Source: an uncultured Pseudomonadales bacterium (lineage in GTDB: Bacteria > Patescibacteriota > Microgenomatia > UBA1400 > CAYXSR01). Taken from it: a stretch of DNA of 64,000 bases. Each line of letters starts with the position of its first letter. Position 1 is the stretch's first letter. The notes below the pieces were generated by a model. The model was not told the origin of the DNA, did no database searches, and saw nothing but the letters and a program-made list of their open reading frames with translations. The stretch is from contig CAYXSR010000003.1 in the NCBI GenBank assembly GCA_964467735.1, positions 1,078 to 65,077 on the forward strand. Direction: 5' to 3'. Made by a program: the position numbers and the translations under genes. Positions 24,959 to 61,093 of this stretch are shown here, piece after piece.

Positions 24959-24965
24959 ATCTTTA

Positions 24966-37351: not shown

Positions 37352-37437
37352 CTTCCCCCTCCCTTCTTAATCAAACTTCTTAATCTTATTAAGATTATCT
37401 CAACTCAGACAATCCAAATAACGAAGATTATTATAAG

Positions 37438-37642: not shown

Positions 37643-38041
37643 ATGACACCAGTAACACCCGATTTATCTATCAATATTAGCCACACGATCTATGCTATGT
37701 TTATTCATAATTATATTTTGGCCGCCTATCTTTTAGGTCTGTTTATTTCGATAGTCTTGGCGATTAAAAAACCGACGCGATTTACTATCCTTCTTATTTT
37801 AGGCTTTGCTATTTTAGCTTTCTCTTTTGAATATGATAAACATATCGCCGAAGGATTAAGAGAACAAACTCTTCAATCACTAATCACTACTAAACCTCAT
37901 TATCAGGCACAGAAATGGATAAATATAATTATTGGCGAAGTTATGCCGATTTTTCTTTATATTATAGGTTGGCTCTTAATCTATCTTGCAATTATCATTG
38001 CTTGTCTGAAAAATAAAAAAAATGTAGCGGGTTCTAGGTAA
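37643..38041 (+). CDS. hypothetical small membrane protein
   Basis: 132 aa with 3-4 hydrophobic helices. Confidence 0.4.
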   Translation: MTPVTPDLSINISHTIYAMFIHNYILAAYLLGLFISIVLAIKKPTRFTILLILGFAILAFSFEYDKHIAEGLREQTLQSLITTKPHYQAQKWINIIIGEVMPIFLYIIGWLLIYLAIIIACLKNKKNVAGSR

Positions 38042-38100
38042 CGCTCCTAGATTAAGTGAGGTTATGAGCCTCACGGGATACTTACCCCCCACCCGCTATC

Positions 38101-38542: not shown

Positions 38543-39412
38543 ATGACAAATGATATTAGTGGCCTTAATTCGGCCTATAAAATTTTTTTACAAGAACTCA
38601 AGACTGAAAGTCGTAGTCCTTCGACTATTTTAGCATATGGATGTGACCTCAAACAGTTAATAAAATTTTTAGCTGATAGAGGAAAAGTTAATCCCAACCA
38701 AATTTCTCTCCAGGATTTAAGAGACTTTAAAGAATCTTTAAAAAAAGATGGTTATACTTTAAAATCTGTTTCTAGAAAAATAAATTCTTTACGGACTTTT
38801 TTCCGTTTTTTATCCTCTAAAGGAATCATCAAAGAAAATTTATCTTTAAGAGTCCCTCATCCCAAGGTTCAAATTAAACCTCCTCGAATTTTAACTAAAA
38901 CTGAATATCGAGCTTTACGTGATGCTTGTCGTGGAGATCTAAGAATTTCGGCAATCGTAGAATTACTTCTACAAACAGGAATTCGCGTAAGTGAACTGGC
39001 TAATCTTAAAACTGATGATATGTCTGATACCCATCTCAATATTACGGGTTCCGGAAAAAATTCCCCTCGAGAAATACCATTAAATCGAGCCGCCAAAAGT
39101 GCTTTAGAAAAATATCTAAAAGTCAGACCAGAAACAAAAAATAAAACTCTTTTTGTTACTAAAAAAGGAACTTCTTTTTTAATCAGAAATATTCGTACTT
39201 CAGTTGATCGATATTTTAGAGAAGCAGGAATAAAAGATGCGAAACTTAATGATTTACGACATACTTTTATTGTTCAACAATTACGCTCTGGTATTCCCTT
39301 AACTACTGTCTCTGAACTTGTTGGTCACAAAAGAATTACGACTACAGAAAAATATCTTCAATTCACTAAACTTTTAAATAGTAATACTAAAATAAAATTA
39401 AAAGAACTTTAA
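38543..39412 (+). CDS. tyrosine site-specific recombinase (XerC/XerD-like)
   Basis: N-terminal SAM-like core-binding domain; catalytic 'RISAIVELLLQTGIRVSE', 'LRHTF', 'HKRITTTEKY' (R…HxxR…Y). Confidence 0.8.
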   Translation: MTNDISGLNSAYKIFLQELKTESRSPSTILAYGCDLKQLIKFLADRGKVNPNQISLQDLRDFKESLKKDGYTLKSVSRKINSLRTFFRFLSSKGIIKENLSLRVPHPKVQIKPPRILTKTEYRALRDACRGDLRISAIVELLLQTGIRVSELANLKTDDMSDTHLNITGSGKNSPREIPLNRAAKSALEKYLKVRPETKNKTLFVTKKGTSFLIRNIRTSVDRYFREAGIKDAKLNDLRHTFIVQQLRSGIPLTTVSELVGHKRITTTEKYLQFTKLLNSNTKIKLKEL

Positions 39413-41758
39413 TTATAATCTTGCCCGTTTATTTATTTCCGCTTCAATAATTTCTTTATCTTTACCGTATTTTAATCTAGAAAGTTGCTTAACCATTTGA
39501 GAAACTTTTGGGTTGCGAAGTTTTTCTATTGTCTCCATATTTTTTGTTAAATCCATGGAAAAAGGAGTCATTGGTTCGTTATTAACAATGGTTTTAATGA
39601 AAGTATGGTATTTTTCAACATTAATAAGGTCTGTTTCAGAAAAAGTCGGCTGAAATTCATGCTGAAGATAGTTTGCATCAGTAACTCCAACACGAAAAGC
39701 AACTAGAGTCCCCACATTTCCAAAAACCGCATTTTTAACTTCTTCCTCTATTTGACCGATAAATTGGTTAGCGACGCATAAATTTAGTCGGTATTTCCGA
39801 GCTTCTGATAGAATTTGAGCAAAGTCAGGTGTTGCAAAATTTTGAAACTCATCAACATATAAATAAAAATCTTTCCTTTCTTTTTCGGAAATATCTTGTC
39901 GACTCATAGCAGCAATTAAAATTCTGGGGACTAAAATTAAACCAAGAAAATTACTATTCTCTTCTCCAATTTTTCCTTTCGCCAAACTAATTAACAATAT
40001 TTTTCCCTCATCCATCACTTTTCGAAAATCAAAAGAAGATTTGCTCTGACCAATAATATTACGCATCATTTTATTGGTAACAAAGCGACCGAATTTAGAA
40101 ACAATATAGTCTAAAACTTCTGATTTATGAAAATCTGAAGTTTGAGCAATCTGATCAGTCCAGTAGCGTCTAACCATCGGATCTTTTACTTTTGGTAAAA
40201 GCTCTTGAACAAATTTAGGATCAGTTAAACAGCGAACTACCTCAATAAAAGTATTTCCTGGTTCACTCATGACTGTTAACATGGCATTACGAATCGCGTG
40301 TTCAAATCGAGGACCAATAATTCCAGTCTTATGAGGATCATAAAGTTTATACATCAAACCAATAATGGAGGTTACTACATAATGTTGCTGTTGTTCTGTT
40401 TCTGCCTCTAACATATTTAGCCCCATTGGTCTTTCGGTATCCGAAGGATCAAAGAAAATAACATCCTCTGCTCTTTCTGGAGGAATAAGTTCCATTATTT
40501 GCTCAACCGTATCATGAGGATCAATGAAGCACACTCCTTTTCCTGCTCGAATGTCTTGTAAAATCATATCTTTCATTAATTCTGATTTACCAACACCTGT
40601 TTTTCCAATAATATAAATATGTCGACGTCTGTCTTCGTCAGTAATACAAACTGGTCTAGTTATTCCTCGATAAACACTTTTTCCTAAAAAAAGCCCTGTT
40701 TTAGGTATCTGGGCGGGGGCGGGGGCCGTTTTTGCTGATAACCAATAAATATGAGGAGTTTCTACCGATTTATTAGGAAAGTGGTAGAGGGTAGCCAACT
40801 CATCAACTGACAAAATACTTCTTTGGTCAAAAATAGGTAAATAACGATAAATAAAATCAATCATAAAGAATTTTTTAAACCAAATCTTAGCTTTAGTAAA
40901 ACGATTTAAAGAAGAAGTAAATTGACTAAAGCTAGCAATTATATTATCTAGATGGTTTTTTGCTTGTTCTTTTGTTCCGGCTGAAACAACAATTCTAATT
41001 GTTGTTTCAAAGCCAACTCGGCTACATTTGTTTTCAATCATTTCTAACTGTTTTGGATCAACATTATATTTCGCCTGTTCTGGATTAGACTCGGATTTTT
41101 TAGTTTTAGAAATATAAGATCTGCCAGCGCTTTGCCAACCAGAGGCAGCCGGTGAAACAATAATTTGAATCCCTGCTCCCTCTCCCTCTTGCATCTTTGC
41201 TAAAGCTGAAGTTATTCCTGATAAAGCGTCTGTTGGTAAGTCTTTATATTGTTTTATCGGATAATAAGAACTACTTTTAAGAACTAAACTAGTGAAAACA
41301 ACCTTTCCTTCTTTTGAGAAGATATTATATTCATCCACTTCTTTCACTTCTGCCCCAGGATAAGCACCGTGAATTTGTTTTTCAACTAAATCACGAAGAC
41401 TATTAGGAACAGAAGCATAAAACCGAATATCTTCTTTTTCGGCTACTATTTCAAAAGAAAGATGGCTTTGAGCTTTAAAACGGGACCAAAAGCCACCCTT
41501 TTTTATTGAATACAAAGAAGCAAACATTTGTTCGGCCGCATCAATCTTTGTTTCATTATCTCTTGGAAGAGCAATTTGAAGTAGAACAGAATCCAAAGAT
41601 TCTTCCTCACGATCCCGGAATTTCAACCATAAAATTAGAATGTAAACAACACCAATTATTCCTAAAACTATTAATCCAGCAATTAAAAATAAAATTATAA
41701 AATAACCCAAGAAACCGATCGCCTGATCTATAATATCCATTCTACTTATCTCCTTCAC
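39413..41758 (-). CDS. TrwB/VirD4/TraD-like (type IV coupling protein family) membrane-anchored P-loop ATPase, copy 1
   Basis: N-terminal TM helix, Walker A 'IIGKTGVGKSE', 'CFIDPHDT' (compare TrwB 'VDPNGD'), Walker B 'LYVDEFQNF'; 781 aa. Confidence 0.6.
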   Translation of the reverse strand: MKEISRMDIIDQAIGFLGYFIILFLIAGLIVLGIIGVVYILILWLKFRDREEESLDSVLLQIALPRDNETKIDAAEQMFASLYSIKKGGFWSRFKAQSHLSFEIVAEKEDIRFYASVPNSLRDLVEKQIHGAYPGAEVKEVDEYNIFSKEGKVVFTSLVLKSSSYYPIKQYKDLPTDALSGITSALAKMQEGEGAGIQIIVSPAASGWQSAGRSYISKTKKSESNPEQAKYNVDPKQLEMIENKCSRVGFETTIRIVVSAGTKEQAKNHLDNIIASFSQFTSSLNRFTKAKIWFKKFFMIDFIYRYLPIFDQRSILSVDELATLYHFPNKSVETPHIYWLSAKTAPAPAQIPKTGLFLGKSVYRGITRPVCITDEDRRRHIYIIGKTGVGKSELMKDMILQDIRAGKGVCFIDPHDTVEQIMELIPPERAEDVIFFDPSDTERPMGLNMLEAETEQQQHYVVTSIIGLMYKLYDPHKTGIIGPRFEHAIRNAMLTVMSEPGNTFIEVVRCLTDPKFVQELLPKVKDPMVRRYWTDQIAQTSDFHKSEVLDYIVSKFGRFVTNKMMRNIIGQSKSSFDFRKVMDEGKILLISLAKGKIGEENSNFLGLILVPRILIAAMSRQDISEKERKDFYLYVDEFQNFATPDFAQILSEARKYRLNLCVANQFIGQIEEEVKNAVFGNVGTLVAFRVGVTDANYLQHEFQPTFSETDLINVEKYHTFIKTIVNNEPMTPFSMDLTKNMETIEKLRNPKVSQMVKQLSRLKYGKDKEIIEAEINKRARL

Positions 41759-42308
41759 TTATAGTTGGTGATTGACTATAAACAAGTCTATCAGGAATCA
41801 TTTTTATTAATCGTAGGCACCACTCCGCCATCCAACGAATTGAATCAGCTATTTTATGTTGTAATCCTATTTTCACTCCCTTATCATCTAATGGTAAATT
41901 AAATTGTGGTTTTGTAATTTTGGCTGCTTCCATTAAAATTTGACCAAAATCATCTTTGATTGGTCCAGGAAAAGAGATTTCTTCTCCCTCTTCAATTTGT
42001 TGCATCCAATCTTTTGCCTCAGGTGGAATTTCAAATTCCTTCTTTCCTGAAACTTCTGGCTGTACTTCTTGGAAAGCCGGTCCTCCAAAAGCTTCTTTTT
42101 GTTCCTTTCCAATTCCAGAAGATACTTCCTCTCCAACCTTTGATAACTGTCTGTTGATGTTAGTTGGCGACTCTGGTTGAGTTACTACACCTACTGGAGT
42201 TTGTTTACCAACAAAATTAGGATCTTGTATATTACTATTTGGAGAACCACTCATTAAATTGTCATTAGACAATAGACTAGCGTCACTCATATTTTTATGA
42301 TAACACAA
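41742..42308 (-). CDS. hypothetical protein, upstream partner of ATPase copy 1
   Basis: 188 aa, Ser/Pro/Glu-rich, overlaps the ATPase start by 17 bp. Confidence 0.35.
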   Translation of the reverse strand: MCYHKNMSDASLLSNDNLMSGSPNSNIQDPNFVGKQTPVGVVTQPESPTNINRQLSKVGEEVSSGIGKEQKEAFGGPAFQEVQPEVSGKKEFEIPPEAKDWMQQIEEGEEISFPGPIKDDFGQILMEAAKITKPQFNLPLDDKGVKIGLQHKIADSIRWMAEWCLRLIKMIPDRLVYSQSPTISEGDK

Positions 42309-42344
42309 GCTATCTAAATTATTAAGAAGAATTAAGTCTTAAAA

Positions 42345-43757
42345 TCAAACTTCTAAGACACGCAACATATTTGTTCTTCCCGGAGTTCCCCAATCAGTTC
42401 CACAAATCAAAATTAACTTTTCTCCCTTTTTAACTAGCCCTTTTTTATCTAAAAAAGTTATCATTTTCTTTATTTGCTGTTCACTTAATTTCTTATAATC
42501 AAAAAGGTATGGTCTAATTCCCCAAACCAAATGTAGTTTATCTCTTGTTGATTGTTTATGGGTAAAAACGTAGATTGGCATTTTAGGACGAAAGCGAGAT
42601 AACATTTTGGCTGTATAACCACTTTCTGTAAGAACTACAAAACCCTTTATTCCGTTAAGGTTCTTCTCTAATTCACAAGCTGCCTCAGCAATGGCGGCAG
42701 TTTGATCTGGAAAAGTAAATTCATTATCACAACCACAACTACAAAGAGTTCTATTGTCTTCCAAGAAAAAAGCTGAACGGGTCATCCATTTAACTGCCTC
42801 AATAGGATGCTTACCATTAGCTGTTTCTCCAGACAACATTAATACGTCAGTCTTATCTAAAATTGCATTACCAACATCAGAGATTTCTGCCCTTGTCGGC
42901 ATAGGATTTTTTATCATACTCTCCAGCATATGGGTAGCAGTTATTACTGGCTTTCCAACACTTAAACACTTTTTAATTATTGTTTTTTGCCAAAAAGGAA
43001 TTTGTTCCATCGGTGTTTCTATTCCTAAATCTCCCCTTGCTACCATTATTCCTTCAGAAGTATCAATAATTTCATCAATATTTTCTAAGGATTGCTGTGT
43101 TTCAATTTTAGCAATCACGTCAGCATTCATTTTTCTCTTTTTAAGTTCAGCTTTAAGATCTAAAATATCTTTTTTATCGCGAACAAAAGATAAAGCAACA
43201 TAATCAATATCTAGCTTATTTCCTAAACTTAAACAATCAAAGTCTCTTTCTGCCAATGATTTTATTCCTAAGTTCACTCCTGGAAGGTTGACACTTTTCC
43301 TTCCCCCTAATGAACCCCCATCAATAACTCGAAGCTTAACTTTTTTATCAGATTTATTTAAAACTTTAAACTTTAACCGACCATCATCAATAAACAAATC
43401 ATCTCCTTCTTTTACATCTCTTATCACCTCCGCTTTATCAATTAATATATCTGTCTTGCCTTGAGCTTTTTTTTGAACGCCCATTGTTACTGTCTCACCA
43501 GTTCTAAATAAATCTTTTGTGCCTACTGCTCTAATTTCTGGACCCTGTAAATCCATCAAAATACAAATACTCATACCTTCCTGTTCAGCAATTTTTCTTA
43601 ACAGCTTCATTTTCTCTTCATGCCAAACCGTATCACTATGTTTCATATTAAATCGGAAAGCTCTGACGCCTAATTGAAGTAATTTTTTTATTTTAACAGG
43701 AGAATCGCATGAGGGTCCAAAAGTAACTAAAATGTTGGTCTTTGGTCTAGTAATCAT
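42345..43757 (-). CDS. pyk: pyruvate kinase
   Basis: '…DLQGPEIR…', 'IMVARGDLGIE' and the K+/Mg2+ site pattern; 470 aa. Confidence 0.85.
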   Translation of the reverse strand: MITRPKTNILVTFGPSCDSPVKIKKLLQLGVRAFRFNMKHSDTVWHEEKMKLLRKIAEQEGMSICILMDLQGPEIRAVGTKDLFRTGETVTMGVQKKAQGKTDILIDKAEVIRDVKEGDDLFIDDGRLKFKVLNKSDKKVKLRVIDGGSLGGRKSVNLPGVNLGIKSLAERDFDCLSLGNKLDIDYVALSFVRDKKDILDLKAELKKRKMNADVIAKIETQQSLENIDEIIDTSEGIMVARGDLGIETPMEQIPFWQKTIIKKCLSVGKPVITATHMLESMIKNPMPTRAEISDVGNAILDKTDVLMLSGETANGKHPIEAVKWMTRSAFFLEDNRTLCSCGCDNEFTFPDQTAAIAEAACELEKNLNGIKGFVVLTESGYTAKMLSRFRPKMPIYVFTHKQSTRDKLHLVWGIRPYLFDYKKLSEQQIKKMITFLDKKGLVKKGEKLILICGTDWGTPGRTNMLRVLEV

Positions 43758-43839
43758 TTTTTTATATATTTATTATATAAATCTTACTTCTTCATTATAG
43801 CTCAAAAATAAATGAAGTCAATTCATAATCCATATGAAT

Positions 43840-44454
43840 TTATTCGAGTAATTTTGGTTTATTTTTAATCTTTATCCCCATTTTTTTTAAACTCTTTGCG
43901 ATCCTAATTAATGGTAATCCTAAGATATTTGAATAATCTCCTTCAAATTTTTCAACAAAAACACATCTTTCATCTTGAATTCCATAAGCTCCTGCTCTAT
44001 CAAGATAGGTACCAGTATCTAAGTAATCATTCATTTGTTTGTTAGTAAAGTTTTTAAAAAAAACTCTACTTTCTTCAAAAAAGTTTTCTTGAATTCCTTT
44101 TTGGTTAATCAGAACTATTCCGGTTAAAATTTTGTGCATTCTATTTTTTAATGAAGAAAGCATTCTTTCTGATTCCTTCCTATTCTCTGGTTTGCCTAAA
44201 ATTTGGAGACTTCTTTTGTTTTTAAAAACAACAATTGTATCCGCACTAATAATTAAAAACTTTTTTTCTTTAATTTTTTTCCTAATTTTCAATCCTTTTG
44301 CTAAAGCTATCTTTTGGGCGATTTCTTCTGGTCTTTTTGACAATCTAAAAAATTTACTTTCATCGATTTCACTCGGTAATATATCAAAAGAAATTCCCAA
44401 AGAGCTTAAAAGCTCTTTCCTTCGTTGAGAAGCTGAAGCAAGAATAATCTTCAC
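43840..44454 (-). CDS. maf: Maf-like nucleoside-triphosphate pyrophosphatase
   Basis: 'MKIILASASQRRKELL…' Maf N-terminus and a 'GAYGIQ' C-terminal motif. Confidence 0.85.
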   Translation of the reverse strand: MKIILASASQRRKELLSSLGISFDILPSEIDESKFFRLSKRPEEIAQKIALAKGLKIRKKIKEKKFLIISADTIVVFKNKRSLQILGKPENRKESERMLSSLKNRMHKILTGIVLINQKGIQENFFEESRVFFKNFTNKQMNDYLDTGTYLDRAGAYGIQDERCVFVEKFEGDYSNILGLPLIRIAKSLKKMGIKIKNKPKLLE

Positions 44455-44477
44455 TAACCAACTCCAACTCTTTAAAC

Positions 44478-44885
44478 TTATTTTGCTTGAATAACCACTG
44501 TCTTTGCTATCTTATCATGCCAGCCTTGCTTCCTCTCATCCCAAATGATCCATAAAAATCCCAAACCCAAAACCGCACTAGAAATCATATAGCCAATATA
44601 TCTTAAAAATGCCTCTGGGTAACCTACTGGCTTCTGATTTTCTTTGACTACTTTTATCCCTACTAACCTTTTACCTATTGTTTGACCATTCCAATTTACC
44701 AAAAGTAAAATTGAATATAAGGCTCCTATTAGAATATTAAAGGTCCTATTAAAAAATAAAGGCCTTGTTCTGCCAAATATCCTACTAATAAAAATTATCA
44801 CTAAACCATCAACAATAGTAGCCAACAATCTAATACCAAAACCAGCATATTCTATTTTCTTTTTAGTTTTTTTCATTAGTATCAC
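44478..44885 (-). CDS. RDD family membrane protein
   Basis: The R…D…D pattern ('RLLATIVDGL…', '…WHDKIAKTVV') with 2-3 TM helices. Confidence 0.65.
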   Translation of the reverse strand: MILMKKTKKKIEYAGFGIRLLATIVDGLVIIFISRIFGRTRPLFFNRTFNILIGALYSILLLVNWNGQTIGKRLVGIKVVKENQKPVGYPEAFLRYIGYMISSAVLGLGFLWIIWDERKQGWHDKIAKTVVIQAK

Positions 44886-44920
44886 CCCCTTTATTTCTAT
44901 TGAACACTATTTTATCTAGA

Positions 44921-45661
44921 TTAATCAATACCTCTAATTTTTGTTCTCGGTAAAAAAATTTTCACTGCCTTTAATATTTCTTTAATCTGAATTTCAGAAA
45001 AAGGCTCCAGCTTTAAAAATTTTTTATTTAAACAGTTTTGGGGTTGAAATTGCTGAAGAAAATAATTAATCTTCTCAATTGGATAATTAGATTCGAGGCT
45101 AAGATCAGCTAATTGTTTGGCTAATTTCATTAAAATTTTTTTATTATGGATACCTGGAACAACGGTTGTTCTTAGCTCATATGGTAAACCAGATTGCCAA
45201 ATGATTTTTAAAGTTTTTTTAATCTTATTGATCGAAAAATTAGTTCCTGTTGCTTGTTGGTAATTATCAAAAGGTCTCTTAATATCCATCGCTATAAAAT
45301 CAATTAGTTTTTTATCGATTAATTTGCTGACTATTTCTGGGTTGGTTCCATTTGTATCTAATTTAACTTCCAAATCTAACAATTTAATTTTTTGACAAAA
45401 ATTAATTAAATCTTTCTGAAGGGTTGGTTCGCCGCCAGTAATACAAACACCGTCTAAAATCTTTTTTCTTTTTTTTAAAAATAAAAAAAATTCACTTTCT
45501 TTTAAGAATGAAAGTTTGCTTTTTTCAAAAAGTTCTTTACTAACAAGATCTTTATTATGACAAAATGGACAACGTAAATTACAGCCGACTGTAAAAACTG
45601 TACAAGCTAATCGACCAGGAAAATCAATAACCGTCGTTTTCTGTAAACCCCCAATAAGCAT
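44921..45661 (-). CDS. nrdG: anaerobic ribonucleoside-triphosphate reductase activating protein (radical SAM)
   Basis: 'CNLRCPFCHN' cluster, 'GGEPTLQ', about 246 aa; immediately downstream of nrdD. Confidence 0.85.
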   Translation of the reverse strand: MLIGGLQKTTVIDFPGRLACTVFTVGCNLRCPFCHNKDLVSKELFEKSKLSFLKESEFFLFLKKRKKILDGVCITGGEPTLQKDLINFCQKIKLLDLEVKLDTNGTNPEIVSKLIDKKLIDFIAMDIKRPFDNYQQATGTNFSINKIKKTLKIIWQSGLPYELRTTVVPGIHNKKILMKLAKQLADLSLESNYPIEKINYFLQQFQPQNCLNKKFLKLEPFSEIQIKEILKAVKIFLPRTKIRGID

Positions 45662-45837
45662 TAATCTTAAAACCTATCAATTGGATAAATTTATCCTATA
45701 AAGTTTACGTTTATAAAATTCCGCTTCTTTTCCTGGATTCCATTGAGAGACTGGTCTTAAATAACCAACAATCCGCGAATAAACTTCGCATCTTGTTCTT
45801 TTTTCAGAATTGTTACTGTTCATCTTCCCTCCTTTTT

Positions 45838-47883
45838 TTAACTTTTTTTATAGCCTATTTCTTGATCACATTTAGGACAATATTTCCATTTGCCTTTTAA
45901 ATATCCATGAATTGGACAAATTGAGAATGTTGGGGTTAAAGAAAAATATGGCAAATGATAGTTTTCCGCAATCTTTTTTACCAATTTTTTGACAACTTTT
46001 ATATTAGGAGGACTTTCACCAATAAACCCATGGAGAACAGTTCCTCCTGTATATTTACATTGCAAGTCATCTTGATGATCAAAGGCTTCAAAAATATCAT
46101 CCGTATAATCAACCGGTAAATGAGTTGAATTAGTATAAAACGGGGCTATGTTTTTGTTTTGTACATCCTTGTTATTGGCACAAATAATCTTACCATTAAA
46201 TTGTTCTTTATCGAGTTTGGCAAAACGATAAGAAGTCCCTTCTGCTGGTGTAGCTTCTAAATTAAACATTTCTCCGCTTTCCTTTTGGTATTCTAAAAGT
46301 TTTTTTCTCATAAAATTCATTATTTCTAAAGCAAAGGCTTTTGCTTTTGGATCAGAAATTGACCTACCCATGAAGTTGATTAAACATTCATTCATTCCGT
46401 TTATTCCGATTGTATTAAAATGATTCCGCCAATATTCGCCGGTTCGTTTTTTAATATCAGATAAATAATAGCGACAATATGGATAGAGACCTTTTTCAGT
46501 AAATTCTTCTACCATTTTTCTTTTAATCATTAATGATTCTTTTGCTAACTTCATTAATTTTTGCAATCTAGAAAAAAAATCTTTTTTTGTCTTAGATAAA
46601 AACCCAATCCTTGGAAGATTAATTGTAACTACCCCAATGGAACCGGTTAAGGGATTAGCAGCAAACAACCCTCCCCTTTTGCGCAAAACTCTATTATCTA
46701 ATCGCAAACGACAACACATGCTTCGGGCATCCTCTGGTTTCATGTCAGAATTTATAAAGTTTGAAAAATAAGGAATTCCATATTTCCTGGTCATTTCCCA
46801 AACTGGCTCCAAAACTGGATTATCCCAATTAAAATCTTTTGTAATGGAGTAAGTGGGAATGGGGAAAGTAAATACTCTACCTTGAGCATCACCCTCCATC
46901 ATTACTTCGGCAAAAACCTGATTAAAAAGATCAACTTCTTTTTGAAAATCTCCATATTTTTCTTTTTTTAGCTTTCCGCCGATAATTACATTCTCTTTGG
47001 CAACAATGTCTGGAATAACTAAATCTAAAGAAACATTGGTAAAAGGAGTCTGAAAACCAACTCTGGTCGGCACATTCATATTAAAAATAAATTCCTGCAT
47101 TGCTTGCTTCACTTCTTTACGAGAAAGTTTGTCAAAGGCAATAAAAGGAGCCAGATAACTATCAAAATTGGCCACAGCAATTGCTCCGGCTACTTCGCCT
47201 TGGAGGGTATAAAAGAAATTAACTAATTGACCTAAGGCTGTCCGAAAATGTTTAGGTGGCTTTGAATGAACTTTCCCTGAAACACCGCCAAAACCTCGCA
47301 TTAATAAATCTTTTAAATCCCAACCAGTACAATAAGCAGAAATTAAAGCTAAATCATGAATATGTAACGCTCCACTAGTGTGAGCTTTACGAATATTTCG
47401 AAGATAAATTTTATTAAGCCAAAAACTGGAGGAAATAATTGAAGCGACATGATTATTTAATCCTTGAAGAGAATAAGTCATGTTAGCATTTTCTTTAACT
47501 AGCCAGTCCGCTTTTTTGAGGTATTGATCTATCAACTCATTAGAATCAACCAAACTAGAAATATCACGTAGTTTACTATGGAGGTCACGATAAAGAGTAA
47601 ACGCTTTATAAGTTCGGCCATGACCTCTTTTTAATAAAGTTTTCTCAACAATATCCTGAACTTGTTCCACTTCTGGAACTAAAGTAGCATTAAATCTTTT
47701 TTCTAATTCTTTTATAACAAGAGTTGCCAAAAAATGCGCTCTTGCTCTATCTTCTCCTCCAGCAGCCTTAGCGGCTTGCCAAATTGTTCTTTCAATTTTT
47801 GCCGGTCGAAAAGCAACAATTCTACCACTTCGTTTTTTAATTTTTTTAATAATAGAATAAATTTTATTTTTTTTTATTTCCAT
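45838..47883 (-). CDS. nrdD: class III (anaerobic) ribonucleotide reductase catalytic subunit
   Basis: N-terminal ATP-cone, a large NrdD body, and a C-terminal Cys4 Zn ribbon flanking the glycyl-radical loop '…CPIHGYL…CPKC'. Confidence 0.9.
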   Translation of the reverse strand: MEIKKNKIYSIIKKIKKRSGRIVAFRPAKIERTIWQAAKAAGGEDRARAHFLATLVIKELEKRFNATLVPEVEQVQDIVEKTLLKRGHGRTYKAFTLYRDLHSKLRDISSLVDSNELIDQYLKKADWLVKENANMTYSLQGLNNHVASIISSSFWLNKIYLRNIRKAHTSGALHIHDLALISAYCTGWDLKDLLMRGFGGVSGKVHSKPPKHFRTALGQLVNFFYTLQGEVAGAIAVANFDSYLAPFIAFDKLSRKEVKQAMQEFIFNMNVPTRVGFQTPFTNVSLDLVIPDIVAKENVIIGGKLKKEKYGDFQKEVDLFNQVFAEVMMEGDAQGRVFTFPIPTYSITKDFNWDNPVLEPVWEMTRKYGIPYFSNFINSDMKPEDARSMCCRLRLDNRVLRKRGGLFAANPLTGSIGVVTINLPRIGFLSKTKKDFFSRLQKLMKLAKESLMIKRKMVEEFTEKGLYPYCRYYLSDIKKRTGEYWRNHFNTIGINGMNECLINFMGRSISDPKAKAFALEIMNFMRKKLLEYQKESGEMFNLEATPAEGTSYRFAKLDKEQFNGKIICANNKDVQNKNIAPFYTNSTHLPVDYTDDIFEAFDHQDDLQCKYTGGTVLHGFIGESPPNIKVVKKLVKKIAENYHLPYFSLTPTFSICPIHGYLKGKWKYCPKCDQEIGYKKS

Positions 47884-47886
47884 TTT

Positions 47887-48333
47887 TTAACAAAGCTCTC
47901 TTATTTGTTCCTTAAATTCATCAATGTTTTTAAAATCTAAAAAAACGGAAGCAAATCTTAAATAAGCAATCTTATCAACTTTTTTTAATCTGGTTAAAAC
48001 CATTCTGCCAATGTCACTTGAGGATACTTCTGTTGATTTTCTATTTAAAAGTCTTAACTCTATATCATCGATAATTCTTTCTATTTCTTCCCCGTCAATA
48101 TTTCTTTTCTCACATGCCTTTTGAATTCCTTGTTTAATTTTTTCTCGATCAAAATCTTCTTTTTCGCCGTCTTTTTTCACTACTTTTAAATCAATTATTT
48201 CCACTCTTTCATAAGTAGTAAATCTTTTCCCACAACTTTGACATTCTCGTCGGCGGCGAGTAACTTCACCATCTTCGCTTTCGCGTGATTCTAAAACTGA
48301 AGTATCATTACCTTTACAATAAGGACAAAGCAT
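47887..48333 (-). CDS. nrdR: transcriptional repressor NrdR
   Basis: 'MLCPYCKG…SVLESRE…RRRRECQSCGKRFTTYE' Zn ribbon plus ATP-cone; the start is taken at the internal Met. Confidence 0.9.
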   Translation of the reverse strand: MLCPYCKGNDTSVLESRESEDGEVTRRRRECQSCGKRFTTYERVEIIDLKVVKKDGEKEDFDREKIKQGIQKACEKRNIDGEEIERIIDDIELRLLNRKSTEVSSSDIGRMVLTRLKKVDKIAYLRFASVFLDFKNIDEFKEQIRELC

Positions 48334-48370
48334 TAAACGACCTTTTTTAAAAATTTTATTTTTCTTCTTT

Positions 48371-48386
48371 ACACTATTCCTAGTGT
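48371..48386 (-). promoter_or_regulatory. NrdR box (16-bp palindrome ACACTATTCCTAGTGT) upstream of nrdR-nrdD-nrdG
   Basis: The perfect ACACTA/TAGTGT arms match the NrdR-box consensus acaCwAtATaTwGtgt; it sits about 38-53 nt upstream of the nrdR start. Confidence 0.6.
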
Positions 48387-48649
48387 ACAAAAAGAATGTA
48401 ATCCCCTAATCCTAGCTTGTCAACTAGAAATTAATACATCAAAAAATATCAATCAAAATTTACTGGCGAAAAATTTTTTTGGCGTTTAGTTTATTTAAAA
48501 AAGTGGCTTTAAAATATAAAATTAAATTGAAATTAAAATGTTGAAAAATTTAAATAATAAGCTCTTGGATATAATTTACTCTTAACGTATATTTTCAGTT
48601 GAATAATCAATCTTATTTTAATTATTAATTCTAATAAAAGACTTCTTTA

Positions 48650-48684
48650 AAACAGCAAAGTTAGAGTGTTCATACTCTAACTTT
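48650..48684 (-). terminator. rho-independent terminator downstream of the 48710-49315 gene
   Basis: 11-bp perfect stem AAAGTTAGAGT / ACTCTAACTTT with a 6-nt loop, followed by a U-rich stretch on the minus strand. Confidence 0.5.
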
Positions 48685-48709
48685 GTTTTACAGAAACTTA
48701 AACTAATTT

Positions 48710-49315
48710 TTATTTCAACAAATTCCTTAAATCCATAAGTTTGCTAATCATTTGATTAAATACCTCTTCTGATCCTTCTGCCTTCGTTACTATCTCCTTT
48801 AAAACCTCTTCATGTTTATCAATTGCTTTAGACAAACGATTTTTAAACTCATCATCTTTTGTTTTCTCCCATTCTAAAACTGCTTTCTCAAGATATTTTT
48901 CTCCTTTTGTTACTGTAGTCACCCCAAGCTGAACTTTATTTTTTTCAATTAAGCTTTTCCCAGCGCCTAATCTCTTATCAGCATACAAAAGTAATTTCTC
49001 TGTTTTCTGAGAAGAGGTAGACAAGGTCAATAATAATCTGTCCCTTATCATCTTAAGCCAATAAAAAGGATTATCAGGTAAAATACCAGGATAAGCTAAA
49101 AAATAGTCATTTTTCTCTTCTTTAACAGTCTCTCCCACCTCCCCTTCGTCACTTACTAAATCTTCTTGGGGATTGAGTATTGGTTCTAATGATGGTTCAC
49201 TCACCTCTGCTCTCACGGGTCGAGAACAGGTTTTTAAAACAGAAATTATCATAACTGCTATTCCCAAAGCTAAAGCAGTTACCGATAAAAGAAAAAATTT
49301 CAATTTAACTTTCAT
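48710..49315 (-). CDS. hypothetical secreted/anchored protein, downstream partner of ATPase copy 2
   Basis: N-terminal signal/TM 'KFFLLSVTALALGIAVMIISVL', then a charged helical body; overlaps the ATPase stop by 11 bp. Confidence 0.4.
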   Translation of the reverse strand: MKVKLKFFLLSVTALALGIAVMIISVLKTCSRPVRAEVSEPSLEPILNPQEDLVSDEGEVGETVKEEKNDYFLAYPGILPDNPFYWLKMIRDRLLLTLSTSSQKTEKLLLYADKRLGAGKSLIEKNKVQLGVTTVTKGEKYLEKAVLEWEKTKDDEFKNRLSKAIDKHEEVLKEIVTKAEGSEEVFNQMISKLMDLRNLLK

Positions 49316-51485
49316 TTTCTTCCTCCTTTTGTTGTTTTGGTGTTTTTGTATATCTTTCTCTAGATAATTTTAAAACTTTCATTCTATTTTTATTAGTACA
49401 GCTAGGCAAAGACAATGTCTTAGCTGAAAAAGGCTCTGACGTACGATTATCAATTGATAGCTTAATAATTGTTTGAAAATTGTCCAAAGCTACTAAGTCC
49501 TCTTCACTATAAGTTTTACCAAATTCTCTTGATAAATATTGAGCATCCTGAGCCCCAACTAGAAAAGAAATTAAAGTCCCTGCATTTCCAAAAATTGCTT
49601 TCTGAATTTCCTCTGGAAGCTGACCCATATATTGATTGGCAACAGTAATATTAAGCCGATATTTTCGAGCTTCTGATAAAATTTTAGCAAAAGAGTCGGT
49701 AGCAAAATTTTGAAACTCATCAACATATAAATAAAAATCTTTTCTTTGAGATTCAGAAATTTTAACTCTGTTCATCGCGGCCAACTGCATTTTAGTGATA
49801 AACATTGCTCCTAATAAAGTGGCATTATCTTCTCCTAAACGACCTTGAGAAAAATTACAAATTAGAATTTTCCCCTTATCCATAAATTCCTGAAGATTTA
49901 TTGTTGAATGGGGATAACCAATAATTTCTCTAATCATTGGTGAAGTTACAAATTGACCAACTTTATTTAAAATCGGCGAAATTGACTCTGATCTTAATTT
50001 AGCAGGCATTTTGTTATACTCATTCAACCAAAAGTTTTTTAAAACATTGTCGCAATATTTTTCAATTATTTTTTGGCGAAAATTATCATCTCCTAAAATT
50101 CTTGGAACATCAACTAAGGTACTTCCTGGTCGTTGAACTAAAGTCATAATTGTGTTACGTAAAATATATTCCAACCTTGGTCCCCAAGAATAAGAATAAA
50201 GTTTATAAAAAATTGAAACTATTCCTGAAGCAACTAACTCTGCGTGTTCTTTTTCTTTAACCTCTAAAGGATTTAAATGAAAAGGGTGCTTTATGTCAGC
50301 AGGATCTAAAAAACAAACATCATTTAATCGATAAGAAGGAACATAATCCAGTAAAACATCACATAAATCACCATGAGGGTCAATCACTGCTAAACCTTCA
50401 TTGTGACGGATATCATTTATCGCCATATTAGCAATTAAAGTTGTCTTACCAACACCAGTCTTACCAATAATATAAACGTGTTTTCTTCTATCCTCTCTTT
50501 TAATTCCAAAGTTAGTTTGTTTATTTTTAAATTCTGTTTGAGCAAAAAAATTAATTTCTTTTTTTTCTTCTTCAGAAAGATCGTCTACTACTGGTAAATT
50601 CTCCGGTGGCTCTCCAATTAATTTACCTCCCCAAGAAATATTTTTAATACGAGAAAGTTTATCATTTGGTAAATGAAAAATTGTCGCCAGCTCATTGATA
50701 TTTAAGAATTGGTGTTTGGGAACTAGTTTAAATTCTCTTTCTAGAATTGCTGTTAGTAACTTCTTTTTAAAAACTTTTTCTTTTTTCAAAGCTAAATCAT
50801 TCCCTTCTCCTAAGGTAAAACCACCAAAACTACCAACTAAATGGTTTAAAAAAGCACTACTTGACTTTTTGTTTATAGAAATCGCTAAAATTCTTAAGCC
50901 TGCTCGAAAAGCTTTTTGAGTTAGTTTTTGAGTAATAAGAGCTGACTGTGGATGGCTTTTAGTTGATTGCCCATCTGGAGTTGGTACCCCTTTTTCCAAA
51001 ATCTTTCTTGCGGCTAATTGGTAAGAAGAACCAGCCGGAACAATCACTAGCTGAATTAAAGCTTTATCATCTGGACCGGCTTTTGCTAAGGTTCCTAAAA
51101 CAGAAGCTAAAGGATCTGTGTCTTGGAAATCTTTATAGGTTTTTAAAGGCAACCAATAGGGTTTACTTAATACTAACTGGCCAAAATCAGCCTTATCTAA
51201 ATCCCAATTAATTAAAAAATTTTCACTTTCAAAAATAGAACTTTTTGGATACTGAGCAGTTAATTGAGAAAGAAGATAAGGTTCAAACTCTTTTTCTATT
51301 ACCGTGTAAAAATGGATCGTTTGATTAAAAAGACCAATTTCAAAAACTAAACATTTTTCTTTATTAACTAGTTTTTGCCAACCTGAAGATTGATAAGTAG
51401 AAAGAGAGGCAAAAACACCAGCTGCTAATTCTAAAGAATCTTCACTGTCCTTAGGAATTTTGATTTCCAAAACCTTTTTATCCAT
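49305..51485 (-). CDS. TrwB/VirD4/TraD-like (type IV coupling protein family) P-loop ATPase, copy 2
   Basis: Walker A 'IIGKTGVGKTT', 'VIDPHGDL', Walker B 'LYVDEFQNF'; the C-terminal about 230 aa is nearly collinear with copy 1. Confidence 0.6.
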   Translation of the reverse strand: MDKKVLEIKIPKDSEDSLELAAGVFASLSTYQSSGWQKLVNKEKCLVFEIGLFNQTIHFYTVIEKEFEPYLLSQLTAQYPKSSIFESENFLINWDLDKADFGQLVLSKPYWLPLKTYKDFQDTDPLASVLGTLAKAGPDDKALIQLVIVPAGSSYQLAARKILEKGVPTPDGQSTKSHPQSALITQKLTQKAFRAGLRILAISINKKSSSAFLNHLVGSFGGFTLGEGNDLALKKEKVFKKKLLTAILEREFKLVPKHQFLNINELATIFHLPNDKLSRIKNISWGGKLIGEPPENLPVVDDLSEEEKKEINFFAQTEFKNKQTNFGIKREDRRKHVYIIGKTGVGKTTLIANMAINDIRHNEGLAVIDPHGDLCDVLLDYVPSYRLNDVCFLDPADIKHPFHLNPLEVKEKEHAELVASGIVSIFYKLYSYSWGPRLEYILRNTIMTLVQRPGSTLVDVPRILGDDNFRQKIIEKYCDNVLKNFWLNEYNKMPAKLRSESISPILNKVGQFVTSPMIREIIGYPHSTINLQEFMDKGKILICNFSQGRLGEDNATLLGAMFITKMQLAAMNRVKISESQRKDFYLYVDEFQNFATDSFAKILSEARKYRLNITVANQYMGQLPEEIQKAIFGNAGTLISFLVGAQDAQYLSREFGKTYSEEDLVALDNFQTIIKLSIDNRTSEPFSAKTLSLPSCTNKNRMKVLKLSRERYTKTPKQQKEEENES

Positions 51486-51518: not shown

Positions 51519-51767
51519 TTAATGAGAAAGACGTCGAGCGCTAATTTGAGCAAGTAATAATAATTCCTCTTTAGCAGCTTTCTCTGGAGAAAAAGGTGGT
51601 AATTCTAGAACTCCTCCTATACTATAAGCCGCCCAACCTTCCACTTGTATTCCTGTTTCTGTTGAATAAACTTCAAAAGGCAAAACTAGCGGTCTAACTA
51701 AATCTGCTCCTTCTGATCCTTTACCAATTGCATAAGAAATACTTTGGCTATCTTCTTCAATAGGCAT
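51519..51767 (-). CDS. hypothetical protein
   Basis: 82 aa ORF, no motif. Confidence 0.3.
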   Translation of the reverse strand: MPIEEDSQSISYAIGKGSEGADLVRPLVLPFEVYSTETGIQVEGWAAYSIGGVLELPPFSPEKAAKEELLLLAQISARRLSH

Positions 51768-51780
51768 TATTAAAATAATA

Positions 51781-52308
51781 TTAGTTTCTGACTAAAACAT
51801 CAACTAATTGTCTGCCAAATTCTTGAGCTGCCTGAGGACCTTGAGCAGTAACTATTTTTCCATCAACAACAACTGGTTGCTCAAGATAATTAACTCCTTT
51901 TGTTTTTAAATTTTCTGCTTTTGAAGGAAAAGTGGTGGCCTTCTTACCTACCAAAACACCGGCATTTGCTAAAATTATTGACCCAAAACAAATACCTCCA
52001 ATAATTTTATTTTTATCTGCGGCTTTTTTTACTAAAGTTAATACTTGTCCATCATTAAAATAAATAGCTGAACCGGGACCACCAATAAAAACTAGCGCAT
52101 CAGAATCTTCTACTCTAAGATCTTGCAATCTAACATCAACTTTAACTACAGAACCCAAAATGCCTTTTGCTTCTCCTACGCCTTTTGAGACAGTAATAAC
52201 TTTAGCTCCATTTTCTTCTAGAATTTTTTTGGGCTCCATATATTCTTCGTCACGAAAGTTATCAGGAGCAATAACTAATAACACTTTTTTATCTTTTAAA
52301 AGCTCCAT
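51781..52308 (-). CDS. DJ-1/PfpI family protein (class I glutamine-amidotransferase-like)
   Basis: Nucleophile elbow 'IGGICFGSIILANAG' at the expected position; 175 aa. Confidence 0.8.
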   Translation of the reverse strand: MELLKDKKVLLVIAPDNFRDEEYMEPKKILEENGAKVITVSKGVGEAKGILGSVVKVDVRLQDLRVEDSDALVFIGGPGSAIYFNDGQVLTLVKKAADKNKIIGGICFGSIILANAGVLVGKKATTFPSKAENLKTKGVNYLEQPVVVDGKIVTAQGPQAAQEFGRQLVDVLVRN

Positions 52309-52344
52309 TGTGCCTCCTTTTAAATAATTAAATCTAAATTGTTT

Positions 52345-54830: not shown

Positions 54831-54870
54831 TGTTCAATCTTTCCTTATTAGTTAAAATATTCTTATTCTT

Positions 54871-60692: not shown

Positions 60693-60696
60693 ATTG

Positions 60697-61091: not shown

Positions 61092-61093
61092 TA

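Follow-up and report, generated by a model that had tools for sequence, protein, structure and literature searches.

Two coupling protein-like ATPases with a DUF8128 domain among conserved housekeeping genes of a Microgenomatia chromosome

The locus and its genes

The window, that is, the whole 64-kb stretch of DNA analysed here, derives from a chromosomal contig of a bacterium resembling Candidatus Beckwithbacteria (Patescibacteria, Microgenomatia). It encodes two P-loop ATPases akin to type IV secretion system (T4SS) coupling proteins (T4CPs), referred to below as copy 1 and copy 2 (Table 1). All ORF coordinates given in a preliminary description of this DNA matched ours. The recombinase and copy 1 genes are convergent and abut, TAA stop beside TAA stop, and Pfam matches confirm pyk, maf, nrdG, nrdD and nrdR between the two ATPase genes, along with an RDD gene. 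The small ORFs said to overlap the ATPase genes do so by 17 nt (41742-41758) for copy 1 and by 11 nt (49305-49315) for copy 2; with the start codon called by NCBI for copy 1 (775 aa, P0001), the overlap with the upstream ORF disappears. The signal peptide ascribed to the DUF5667 protein corresponds to an N-terminal hydrophobic signal or anchor. Two tRNA-Met genes, together with the tyrosine recombinase, adjoin copy 1.

Table 1. Features of the locus (positions are those of the window).
Feature	Length or residues	Position	Strand	Basis
Xer-like tyrosine recombinase	289 aa	38543..39412	+	Pfam Phage_integrase (2.4e-29), Phage_int_SAM_1
Copy 1, membrane-anchored DUF8128 and T4CP-like P-loop ATPase	781 aa (NCBI: 775 aa)	39413..41758	-	
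Copy 1, N-terminal hydrophobic helix, membrane anchor	residues ~14-46	41621..41719	-	Kyte-Doolittle, AF2 model
Copy 1, DUF8128 domain, alpha/beta, VirB4-like predicted fold	residues ~55-345	40724..41596	-	PF26449, domain model
Copy 1, motor domain	residues ~355-740	39539..40696	-	
Copy 1, Walker A GKTGVGKS		40583-40606	-	
Copy 1, all-helical insert in motor	residues ~455-570			AF2 secondary structure
Copy 1, Walker B FYLYVDEFQNFAT		39830-39868	-	
Copy 1, ILSEARKYRLN		39782-39814	-	
Block of highest inter-copy DNA similarity		39687..39892 (counterpart 49555-49760)	-	
Small upstream partner of copy 1	188 aa (NCBI: 182 aa)	41742..42308	-	
Housekeeping genes pyk, maf, RDD, nrdG, nrdD, nrdR		42345..48390	-	Pfam
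DUF5667 protein, N-terminal hydrophobic signal/anchor		48710..49315	-	PF18915 (3.5e-11)
Copy 2, soluble DUF8128 and T4CP-like ATPase	726 aa	49305..51485	-	
Copy 2, DUF8128		50613-51485	-	
Copy 2, Walker A		50442-50465	-	
Copy 2, Walker B		49698-49736	-	
Conserved synteny block upstream of copy 2: 82-aa ORF, DJ-1/PfpI, 287-aa unknown, solute-binding protein, VanW		51519..56664	.	Pfam

Against the NCBIfam XerC, XerD and XerA models, the 289-aa recombinase scored ~165-170 bits, under the equivalog cut-offs (170 and 165 bits for XerC and XerD, versus 335 and 330). Only the domains it contains and its conserved place in the chromosome thus make the protein putatively Xer-like. Across the 64 kb, there was no gene for VirB4, a relaxase or a pilin, nor any other T4SS gene, which agrees with the earlier view of the ATPases as orphans outside a canonical conjugative T4SS, and the Pfam tables of six orthologous loci likewise contain no VirB4 or relaxase genes.

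Domain architecture of the ATPases and their relatives

Both proteins have the same domain order, with DUF8128 (PF26449) preceding a P-loop motor nearest to TrwB/VirD4, and in both the Walker A (GKTGVGKS/T) and Walker B (hhhhDE) motifs are intact. The PF26449 assignment comes from the precomputed Pfam annotation of database entries 100% identical to copy 1 (P0001; PF26449 and PF12696) and copy 2 (P0121; PF26449, PF10412, PF01935 and PF12696), the name DUF8128 being taken from neighbourhood tables. The Pfam models TrwB_AAD_bind (23.1 and 33.1 bits for the two copies; cut-off 20.5) and TraG-D_C (26.2 and 32.6 bits; cut-off 22) matched above gathering, as did DUF87, and the family profile, when compared with PDB sequences, matched TrwB (5e-5), the closest solved sequence, and DotL (2e-3). 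These matches bear out the assignment of both copies to a TrwB/VirD4-like branch. All curated NCBIfam T4CP models (TraD, VirD4-like CD1115, TrbC) scored far under their cut-offs, the best being SXT_TraD (51 bits versus 366) and VirD4-like CD1115 (49 bits versus 250).

Foldseek searches with the AF2 model of copy 1 (pLDDT 88.6) retrieved VirB4, HerA and TrwB; the target-normalised TM-score to TrwB was ~0.6, and the best E-value (1.7e-16, over ~860 alignment columns) belonged to VirB4. For the isolated DUF8128 model (pLDDT 89.5, pTM 0.88), the top 13 PDB matches were all TrwK/VirB4 (E from 1.7e-8 to 4e-6, TM ~0.5), with the next family at 3e-4. Judged from Foldseek alone, the N-domain may therefore be VirB4-like, with a presumed NTD-to-NTD correspondence. 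VirB4/TrwK and the window ATPases share an alpha/beta N-domain and a RecA-like C-domain within ~800 aa, but no sequence match past the P-loop: the VirB4_CagE model (TIGR00929) scored 26 bits against a cut-off of 643, VirB4 was absent from the family-profile matches among PDB sequences, and hhalign of the family profile with a TcpF-like VirB4 gave a probability of 1.2%, aligning the Walker A region alone.

Membrane anchoring, another element of the preliminary description, holds for copy 1 but not for copy 2. In the former, Kyte-Doolittle windows exceed 1.6 solely at residues ~14-46, which lie within a single long AF2 helix (residues 2-46) set apart from the nucleotide-binding domain (NBD) by the 290-aa DUF8128, whereas in the latter the same method yielded no hydrophobic segment. 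The N-terminal anchor of TrwB (R388), VirD4 and DotL may have a counterpart in copy 1, and these proteins also resemble the window ATPases in motor fold (TM ~0.6) and, apparently, in an insert separating Walker A from Walker B, which the AF2 model of copy 1 shows as ~115 all-helical residues and which is a candidate equivalent of the TrwB AAD. However, the sequence identity is only 13-15%, and in canonical T4CPs a two-helix TMD leads straight into the NBD, with no equivalent of the ~290-aa DUF8128 domain. FtsK/SpoIIIE and TcpA-type proteins, similar to the window family, are membrane-anchored hexameric translocases of the ASCE FtsK-HerA superfamily, but FtsK was not among the top structural matches listed, and the window ATPases had neither an FtsK_SpoIIIE (PF01580) match in Pfam at E <= 0.01 nor a gamma-domain-like region.

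Full-length homologues with 23-32% identity are found in Bacillus, Streptomyces and archaeal plasmids. For instance, a B. subtilis plasmid protein aligns with copy 1 at 26% identity over 696 aa (E 8e-57) and with copy 2 at 23% over 729 aa, and heads an operon encoding Replic_Relax, conjugal-transfer proteins, a TcpF-like VirB4 and a CD3337-family membrane protein. In both Bacillaceae plasmids examined, the homologue heads a conjugation operon beside a relaxase-type gene and a TcpF-like VirB4. One such ATPase (WP_345805471.1, NZ_CP154917.1) is collinear with copy 1 over its full length, including the DUF8128 region (26% over 696 aa, E 8e-57), has the same Walker motifs and matches Pfam DUF87 and, weakly, TrwB_AAD_bind; unlike copy 1, it lacks an N-terminal TM helix within the aligned region and ends in an acidic tail of ~170 aa. 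Its gene is located directly upstream of those for a Replic_Relax protein and a TcpF-like VirB4 T4SS, whereas the window genes have neither neighbour. This gene position suggests that proteins of the WP_345805471.1 type are the T4CPs of these small Bacillaceae plasmids.

Paralogy and conserved neighbourhoods

Copies 1 and 2 are collinear over ~730 aa at 35-36% amino acid identity (BLASTP E 8e-150); the collinearity reported for the C-terminal ~230 aa is thus real but not restricted to the C-terminus. At the nucleotide level, identity is 51% overall, reaches 76.6% over 209 nt in the best block (blastn; 72% over 156 nt in a repeat search) and peaks in one 30-codon window at 82%, with 77% at third positions, so that the DNA identity of more than 80% reported previously applies only to ~90 nt around Walker B. 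The 209-nt block and its peak had been taken as a sign of recent duplication or gene conversion, and a tandem-type duplication followed by conversion that kept the C-terminal block alike would fit them. However, this is refuted by the comparison with orthologues: copy 1 and copy 2 share 36% identity whether compared inside one genome or between genomes, the paralogues of another genome matching the window copies as well as these match each other, whereas each copy is 71-78% identical to its own orthologue and, in a neighbour-joining tree, the copy-1 clade is apart from the copy-2 clade. Within the core block, amino acid identity is 84% within the genome versus 76-81% across genomes, and the same codon is used at 22 of 31 positions (0.71) versus 0.50-0.62 (~17/30), which is not a clear difference; the same block is conserved in protein between the paralogues of another genome. 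Recent duplication with conversion is accordingly exceedingly improbable, and, as judged from these alignments, the stretch of similar DNA corresponds to the conserved Walker B region and not to a conversion tract. Orthologues of copy 1 (47-80% identity) are present across Microgenomatia and neighbouring classes, and those of copy 2 (55-76%) in Beckwith-, Shapiro-, Blackburn- and Gottesmanbacteria.

The surroundings of both genes are conserved as well. In 26 of 48 species-level loci from many orders, an Xer homologue is encoded no more than 5 kb downstream of copy 1 (convergently in 25), usually with DivIC next. Upstream, copy 1 is usually abutted by a same-strand ORF, and of 68, at least 43 belong to one HMM family, which substantiates the 188-aa product as a small partner of copy 1. 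This protein has no match in Pfam or NCBIfam, aligns with its counterpart in locus L001 at 45% identity over 112 aa and evolves fast, a word-based search retrieving only 9 homologues, but retains a C-terminal motif, '...DS.RWLAEWC.R.LK'. The analogous role proposed for the DUF5667 protein with copy 2 does not stand: DUF5667 is the conserved neighbour of nrdR, being located directly upstream of it in ~20 copy-1 loci without copy 2, and purB is the gene that copy 2 overlaps in other genomes. Furthermore, nrdR, an RNR gene and maf are found upstream of copy 1 in other Microgenomatia, and the block upstream of copy 2, from the 82-aa ORF to VanW, has an identical order beside copy-2 orthologues in L002, L086 and L087. 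Both ATPase genes hence lie within synteny blocks kept across orders, and, on this gene-order evidence, their closeness is best described as the juxtaposition of two conserved housekeeping blocks. The bracketing of housekeeping genes that had seemed odd recurs in one other genome (L087), and the view that the locus is not a simple island is upheld.

The same synteny weighs on the possibility, raised previously, that the locus was left behind or carried by an integrated element of a conjugative or mobilisable kind, in which case an Xer-like integrase and two ATPases would remain from an ICE that had taken up housekeeping genes. The recombinase and the two tRNA-Met genes beside copy 1 are in line with such an origin, as is the occurrence of the closest homologues outside Patescibacteria on plasmids (604 records) and, in some cases, on Bacillus phages. 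However, there are no att-like direct repeats, the repeats detected being the paralogue block and AT-rich chance matches, the GC content (0.30-0.35) equals that of the flanks, and the 64 kb lack the relaxase, VirB4 and pilin genes mentioned above. Moreover, gene order across both ATPases, Xer, DivIC and the flanking regions is shared between orders, with identities of 47-80%, which indicates vertical inheritance. We consider a remnant island highly improbable and, for the present genome, effectively refuted; descent from a conjugative element in the distant past is a distinct matter and is likely.

Distribution in Patescibacteria and candidate functions

Searches with the family returned 6,291 representative clusters at E <= 1e-30 and 22,516 at E <= 1e-3, the latter count also taking in distant T4CP/HerA-type relatives. 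Copy 1 is conserved at least as well as FtsH or TrpS, with a median identity of 64-66% in the same loci, compared to 60.5 for FtsH, 57 for TrpS and 50 for both Xer and NrdR. A recent survey reports 5,713 VirD4-type T4CP homologues in 2,918 patescibacterial genomes, ~2 in each, of which just 148 are near virB4, along with VirB4-based T4SS, mostly without relaxase, in 2,417 of 3,035 assemblies and a separate, bona fide patescibacterial VirB4 clade (Quinonero-Coronel et al., 2025, Microb Genom, PMC12102498). The window genes are from the same phylum, chromosomal, ~2 per genome, almost never beside virB4 and without relaxase, and their orthologues bear the same NCBI names (e.g. 'type IV secretion system DNA-binding domain-containing protein' and 'TraM recognition domain-containing protein'). 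They appear to be members of this orphan set, to judge by copy number, naming and Pfam matches. Thus, the locus is an ordinary example of a published, functionally unexplained pattern, in which nearly all Patescibacteria carry ~2 such genes away from T4SS genes. Relative to the available portion of the survey, the present analysis adds the DUF8128/VirB4-like N-domain, the copy-1/copy-2 split, the small partner and the Xer/DivIC synteny.

On balance, we lean towards the explanation that the two genes go back to an ancient duplication within a chromosomal patescibacterial family of hexameric-type P-loop translocases akin to T4CPs, probably serving a T4SS encoded elsewhere. The ancestor may have been the coupling ATPase of a monoderm (Firmicutes/archaeal-type) conjugation system that became fixed in the chromosome, with the duplication probably preceding the diversification of Microgenomatia. 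The proteins would most likely use ATP to recruit and translocate a macromolecular substrate at the membrane, probably feeding a relaxase-less, chromosomally encoded patescibacterial T4SS; DUF8128 might be a docking module, the small partner of copy 1 might serve as an adaptor or itself be a substrate, and copy 2 might confer a second specificity or be a soluble co-subunit. We only infer the link of both ATPases to a T4SS, because no T4SS gene is present in the window or near any orthologue examined. Several observations count against this explanation. Southlakia epibionticum requires its T4SS but can do without the t4cp homologue, and exaptation of the latter cannot be ruled out according to the survey (PMC12102498, citing PMC10633639 for the essentiality); Wang et al. 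recognised no coupling protein in the T4SS cluster; and the NCBIfam coupling-protein scores are far below their cut-offs.

Conjugative T4CPs are seldom conserved as strongly as FtsH, and a housekeeping role fits such conservation at least as well. T4CPs and FtsK belong to one FtsK-HerA superfamily, and FtsK partners Xer recombinases. By analogy with FtsK-XerCD, the Xer/DivIC link could mean that copy 1 is an exapted, membrane-anchored DNA pump acting in division, segregation or dimer resolution, for which the recurrent convergent Xer gene, the conservation of copy 1 and the dispensability of the t4cp homologue for epibiotic growth all speak. However, Xer and copy 1 are convergent and therefore not co-transcribed, about half of the loci have no nearby Xer, and the entire neighbourhood, from nrdR to trpS-ftsH, is syntenic, so that the Xer linkage may be mere conserved gene order. 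In addition, the FtsK_SpoIIIE match and gamma domain are missing, and TM7x is annotated with ftsK, which provides the canonical partner in at least some Patescibacteria; an FtsK motif scan over 1.5 Mb of loci gave nothing, which bears on these loci and says nothing of whole genomes. We regard this role as unlikely. A more specific version, in which copy 1 would have no part in secretion and be an essential-grade, membrane-anchored DNA translocase domesticated from a conjugative T4CP, working with Xer, DivIC and the small partner to segregate chromosomes or resolve dimers at division, and in which the VirB4-like N-domain and VirD4-like motor of the family would mark an evolutionary intermediate between the two T4SS ATPases, appears quite unlikely.

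Involvement in anti-phage defence, as a HerA-like or MADS-type ATPase, is very improbable. PADLOC mad8 (1e-18 for copy 1 and 1.4e-13 for copy 2) and HerA models do match, but only over the generic motor domain, no further defence component is encoded nearby, and near-universal, single-locus, syntenic conservation is unlike that of defence islands.

Patescibacteria, which are epibionts with tiny genomes, account for a large part of bacterial diversity, and genes that are universally kept and strongly constrained in them are good clues to their lifestyle. The present arrangement is ordinary for the lineage, being neither an island nor a recent duplication. The 'orphan coupling proteins' of the 2025 survey split, in Microgenomatia at least, into two orthologue groups of ancient origin, one soluble and the other membrane-anchored, accompanied by a small partner and conserved at least as well as FtsH. 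The predicted VirB4-like fold of DUF8128, the full-length homologues heading Bacillaceae plasmid operons for conjugation and the recurrent Xer/DivIC neighbourhood offer handles for distinguishing T4SS feeding from repurposing.

Gene content and order of the region

The ORF map of the region agrees with the gene coordinates of the preliminary description. The genes for the tyrosine recombinase (Xer) and ATPase copy 1 abut at their stop codons, both TAA. Upstream of the paralogous ATPase, copy 2, lie an 82-aa ORF and, as assigned with Pfam, genes for DJ-1/PfpI, an uncharacterized 287-aa protein, a solute-binding protein and VanW. The remainder of the 64 kb encodes housekeeping functions, including enolase, phosphoglycerate mutase, recF, fpg, ftsH, trpS, an ATP-dependent ligase, efp, lgt, thioredoxin reductase, smpB/tmRNA and a ComFC-like gene. 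Pfam analysis of essentially all ORFs of at least 90 aa in the 64 kb uncovered no genes for VirB4, VirB6, relaxase or pilins. Each ATPase has a 100%-identical database entry, and the closest relatives are found in Candidatus Beckwithbacteria and other Microgenomatia.

Features of the region carrying the two ATPase genes (window coordinates)
Feature	Length (aa)	Position	Strand	Source
Tyrosine recombinase (Xer)	289	38543-39412	+	ORF map
ATPase copy 1	781	39413-41758	-	ORF map
Small ORF	188	41742-42308	-	ORF map
pyk, maf, RDD-family gene, nrdG, nrdD, nrdR		42345-48390	-	ORF map, Pfam
DUF5667 protein	201	48710-49315	-	ORF map, Pfam
ATPase copy 2	726	49305-51485	-	ORF map

A remnant of an integrated element had been among the origins initially considered for the ATPases. 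The GC content is flat at ~0.32 across the region, and a search for direct and inverted repeats at 36-53 kb yielded no att-like repeats, only the block shared by the paralogues and AT-rich chance matches. The strongest argument against an island is the conserved synteny. Comparison of 80 species-level loci delineated a recurrent copy-1 block (DUF5667 - nrdR - (RNR, maf ...) - small ORF - copy 1 - convergent Xer - DivIC - ... - trpS - ftsH), and copy 2 belongs to a block of its own (VanW - solute-binding protein - unknown - ... - copy 2). In the window the two blocks are joined, and the identical join occurs in one other genome (L087), whereas in two further loci (L002 and L086) copy 2 is followed by purB-purA instead. 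Judged by gene order, the region does not appear to be an island, and this reading is effectively excluded. The DUF5667 protein, initially proposed as the partner of copy 2, recurs upstream of nrdR in the copy-1 block and is therefore a habitual neighbour of nrdR; its 11-nt overlap with copy 2 reflects tight gene packing, and purB, where it takes this place, likewise overlaps copy 2.

Many of the public MAG records (L006-L085) whose genes near copy 1 clearly follow the Microgenomatia order bear the titles ‘uncultured Gammaproteobacteria’, ‘Pseudomonadales’, ‘Nevskiaceae’, ‘Ignavibacteriaceae’ or ‘Candidatus Bathyarchaeia archaeon’. The bins behind them were probably mislabelled or contaminated, and titles discordant with Microgenomatia synteny were disregarded. 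In L087 (13470-16620), which shares the arrangement of the window, NrdD is called as 1000 aa plus a 48-aa NRDD fragment, compared to 681 aa in the window, possibly owing to an intein or insertion. The 82-aa ORF directly upstream of copy 2 (51519-51767) has no family match and may be a real small gene; L086 carries an 82-aa ORF in a similar place, just after DJ-1/PfpI, with purine genes between it and copy 2.

Several other features of the window deserve mention. ARAGORN predicts two tRNA-Met (CAT) genes (37437-37510 and 38024-38097), the first of which alone is recovered by Rfam at the gathering threshold; a 132-aa membrane-protein ORF (37643-38041) overlaps the second with its 3′ end. At 23192-26039, an archaeal/eukaryotic-type ATP-dependent DNA ligase adjoins a Fic/DOC protein with a DeoR-like HTH, and at 59923-61537, the ComFC-like gene (double zinc ribbon plus phosphoribosyltransferase) adjoins tmRNA (60694-61091) and smpB (61094-61537). 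The stretch 18000-21000, with a GC content of 0.45-0.49 against the background of ~0.32, contains a 595-aa von Willebrand factor A domain ORF (18533-20320, minus strand) and may be a recent horizontal acquisition.

Age of the paralogy

The similarity between the C-terminal regions of the two ATPases had been taken to suggest a duplication or gene conversion. The locally similar DNA block indeed exists, but the protein similarity extends beyond the C-terminus over the full length (35% identity over ~730 residues, E = 8e-150), with a codon-aligned DNA identity of 51%. The sole DNA-level match is a 209-nt block (76.6% identity, with a 30-codon peak of 82%) spanning Walker B and the ‘ILSEARKYRLN’ region. 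As a reference, we aligned the codons with those of the two orthologues in a second Beckwithbacteria genome (L001 and L002). The window copies are 77% or 71% identical to their own orthologues, compared to 36% for all copy-1/copy-2 pairs, within or between genomes; gene conversion was rejected, as this comparison revealed no within-genome excess, and a recent duplication is likewise effectively excluded. In the core block, paralogue identity is 84% within the genome versus 76-81% across genomes, and the fraction of identical codons is 0.71 (n = 31) versus 0.50-0.62. The block owes its similarity to purifying selection on the catalytic core, in a genome with an AT bias, rather than to gene conversion.

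Orthologues of copy 1 (47-80% identity) occur in Gottesman-, Levy-, Curtiss-, Woese-, Roizman-, Davies-, Collier-, Shapiro- and Dojkabacteria and WWE3, and those of copy 2 (55-76%) in Beckwith-, Shapiro-, Blackburn- and Gottesmanbacteria. In a neighbour-joining tree rooted with plasmid homologues and built without bootstrap, the copy-1 clade is separate from the clade that contains copy 2. Overall, the comparisons indicate that the paralogy is old. In one further locus (L085, 1173-5821), a copy-1-like gene (1173-3536) and a second DUF8128 ATPase (3623-5821) form a direct tandem; the latter is 38% identical to copy 2 and falls on the copy-2 side of the tree, but not within the clade that the named copy-2 orthologues form.

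Family affiliation and predicted structure

The Pfam matches of the ATPases to TrwB_AAD_bind, TraG-D_C and DUF87 are weak but exceed the thresholds. The NCBIfam models for coupling proteins (TraD, CD1115 VirD4-like, TrbC and CedD) and VirB4 all score far below their cut-offs. The N-terminal ~290 residues correspond to PF26449 (DUF8128) in precomputed Pfam data, a domain of which we found no mention in the literature searched. The AlphaFold2 model of copy 1 is confident (pLDDT 88.6). In it, a long helix at the N-terminus, which is the sole hydrophobic segment of the protein, precedes the alpha/beta DUF8128 domain, and the RecA-like motor that follows bears an all-helical insert of ~115 residues; copy 2 shares this layout but lacks the membrane helix. 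Foldseek comparison of the copy 1 model with the PDB retrieved full-length TrwK/VirB4 first (E = 1.7e-16, ~860 aligned columns), followed by HerA (9e-13) and TrwB (9e-12; TM ~0.6 on the target). The DUF8128 domain modelled separately (pLDDT 89.5) matched TrwK/VirB4 chains (E = 1.7e-8 to 4e-6, TM ~0.5), with the next family at 3e-4. At the sequence level, such a link was sought and rejected: the family profile retrieved TrwB (5e-5) and DotL (2e-3), but not VirB4, from PDB sequences, and hhalign against a TcpF-like VirB4 aligned the P-loop only. We read the models as a VirB4-like N-domain fold combined with a VirD4-like motor, with the N-domain equivalence confined to the fold level. Many representative proteins (P0279-P0390; 440-930 aa) align with the motor only (query residues ~306-720, ~50% identity) and carry it at their own N-terminus, followed by a different C-terminal extension; they may represent a variant of the family that is split or lacks DUF8128.

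Outside Patescibacteria, tblastn identified homologues in 604 plasmid records, mainly from Bacillus, Streptomyces, Staphylococcus, Clostridium, haloarchaea and Sulfolobus (24-32% identity among the matches listed; at least 80% of copy 1 covered in 57 records), and in 53 phage records, mostly of Bacillus phages (e.g., gp156 of phage G). Two plasmids, one of B. subtilis (27.5 kb) and one of Shouchella (31 kb), carry the homologue, under the annotation of a DUF87 protein, as the first gene of an operon that continues with a Replic_Relax protein, conjugal-transfer proteins, a TcpF-like VirB4 (836 bits) and a CD3337/EF1877 membrane protein, whereas the window copies lack such neighbours. The B. subtilis protein aligns with copy 1 over 696 residues, including DUF8128 (26% identity, E = 8e-57), and with copy 2 over 729 residues (23%). 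Given these full-length homologues at the head of plasmid conjugation operons, we infer that the family represents coupling-type ATPases of a monoderm conjugation lineage, in agreement with the published kinship of the patescibacterial type IV secretion system (T4SS) with the monoderm MPF-FATA class. With TrwB closest by profile and no T4SS genes in the window, the label of orphan TrwB/VirD4-like ATPases is reasonable. The preliminary description is largely upheld, but its suggestions of a recent duplication or gene conversion, a DUF5667 partner and an element remnant lack support.

Putative function of the ATPases

According to the portions of the survey consulted here (Quinonero-Coronel et al., 2025; PMC12102498), 2918 Patescibacteria genomes encode 5713 homologues of VirD4-type coupling proteins (T4CP), or roughly two for each genome, and just 148 of these lie near virB4; VirB4 is present in 2417 of 3035 assemblies and relaxases are rare. 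In Southlakia epibionticum, the T4SS is essential and the t4cp homologue is not, for which reason the authors of the survey do not rule out exaptation. A T4SS cluster without a recognizable coupling protein or relaxase has also been described (Wang et al., 2023; PMC10633639). The window is one instance of this pattern of orphan T4CP homologues. The same portions of PMC12102498 apparently do not cover the two-orthogroup structure, DUF8128 fold, small partner, conservation level or Xer/DivIC synteny.

The analysis shows intact ATPase motifs in both copies, homology of both to conjugative coupling-type ATPases and their inheritance as core chromosomal genes, as well as a membrane anchor in copy 1. 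Both would form hexameric translocases that recruit a protein or DNA substrate at the membrane, and would most likely serve a chromosomal relaxase-less T4SS encoded elsewhere. The N-domain of VirB4 contacts VirB3 and VirB8; by analogy, DUF8128 could be a docking module, and the small ORF upstream of copy 1 could encode an adaptor or substrate. We consider this joint reading slightly better than an even bet.

The main rival, which we regard as unlikely, posits a DNA translocase domesticated for housekeeping and linked to Xer and DivIC. An Xer homologue indeed recurs within 5 kb downstream of copy 1 in 26 of the 48 loci whose flanks are long enough, but in 25 of the 26 the two genes are convergent, and gene order around copy 1 is conserved in general. 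The extreme conservation of copy 1 would fit a housekeeping role: its median identity to the window protein (64-66%) exceeds, in the same loci, that of the surrounding FtsH (60.5%), TrpS (57%), Xer and NrdR (50% each) and DivIC (33%). The dispensability of the t4cp homologue for epibiosis in Tn-seq points in the same direction, whereas the ftsK annotated in TM7x weakens this rival. The ATPases themselves have no FtsK Pfam match; a regular expression for FtsK Walker motifs found no match in 1.5 Mb of compared loci, a scope of loci rather than whole genomes. A defence system is effectively excluded, as the PADLOC matches (mad8 and HerA) are confined to the motor domain and partner genes are lacking.

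Returning to the putative adaptor or substrate of a T4SS-serving translocase, most loci have an ORF of 100-200 aa on the strand of copy 1 that adjoins or overlaps its start. The window protein has no Pfam or NCBIfam match, and a word-seeded homologue search gave 9 matches only and no domain; since the protein evolves too fast for such searches, we resorted to local HMM iteration on neighbouring ORFs. The resulting single family holds at least 43 of the 68 upstream ORFs and combines a variable N-terminus with the conserved C-terminal motif ‘LP(L/I)T...DS.RWLAEWC.R.LK’.
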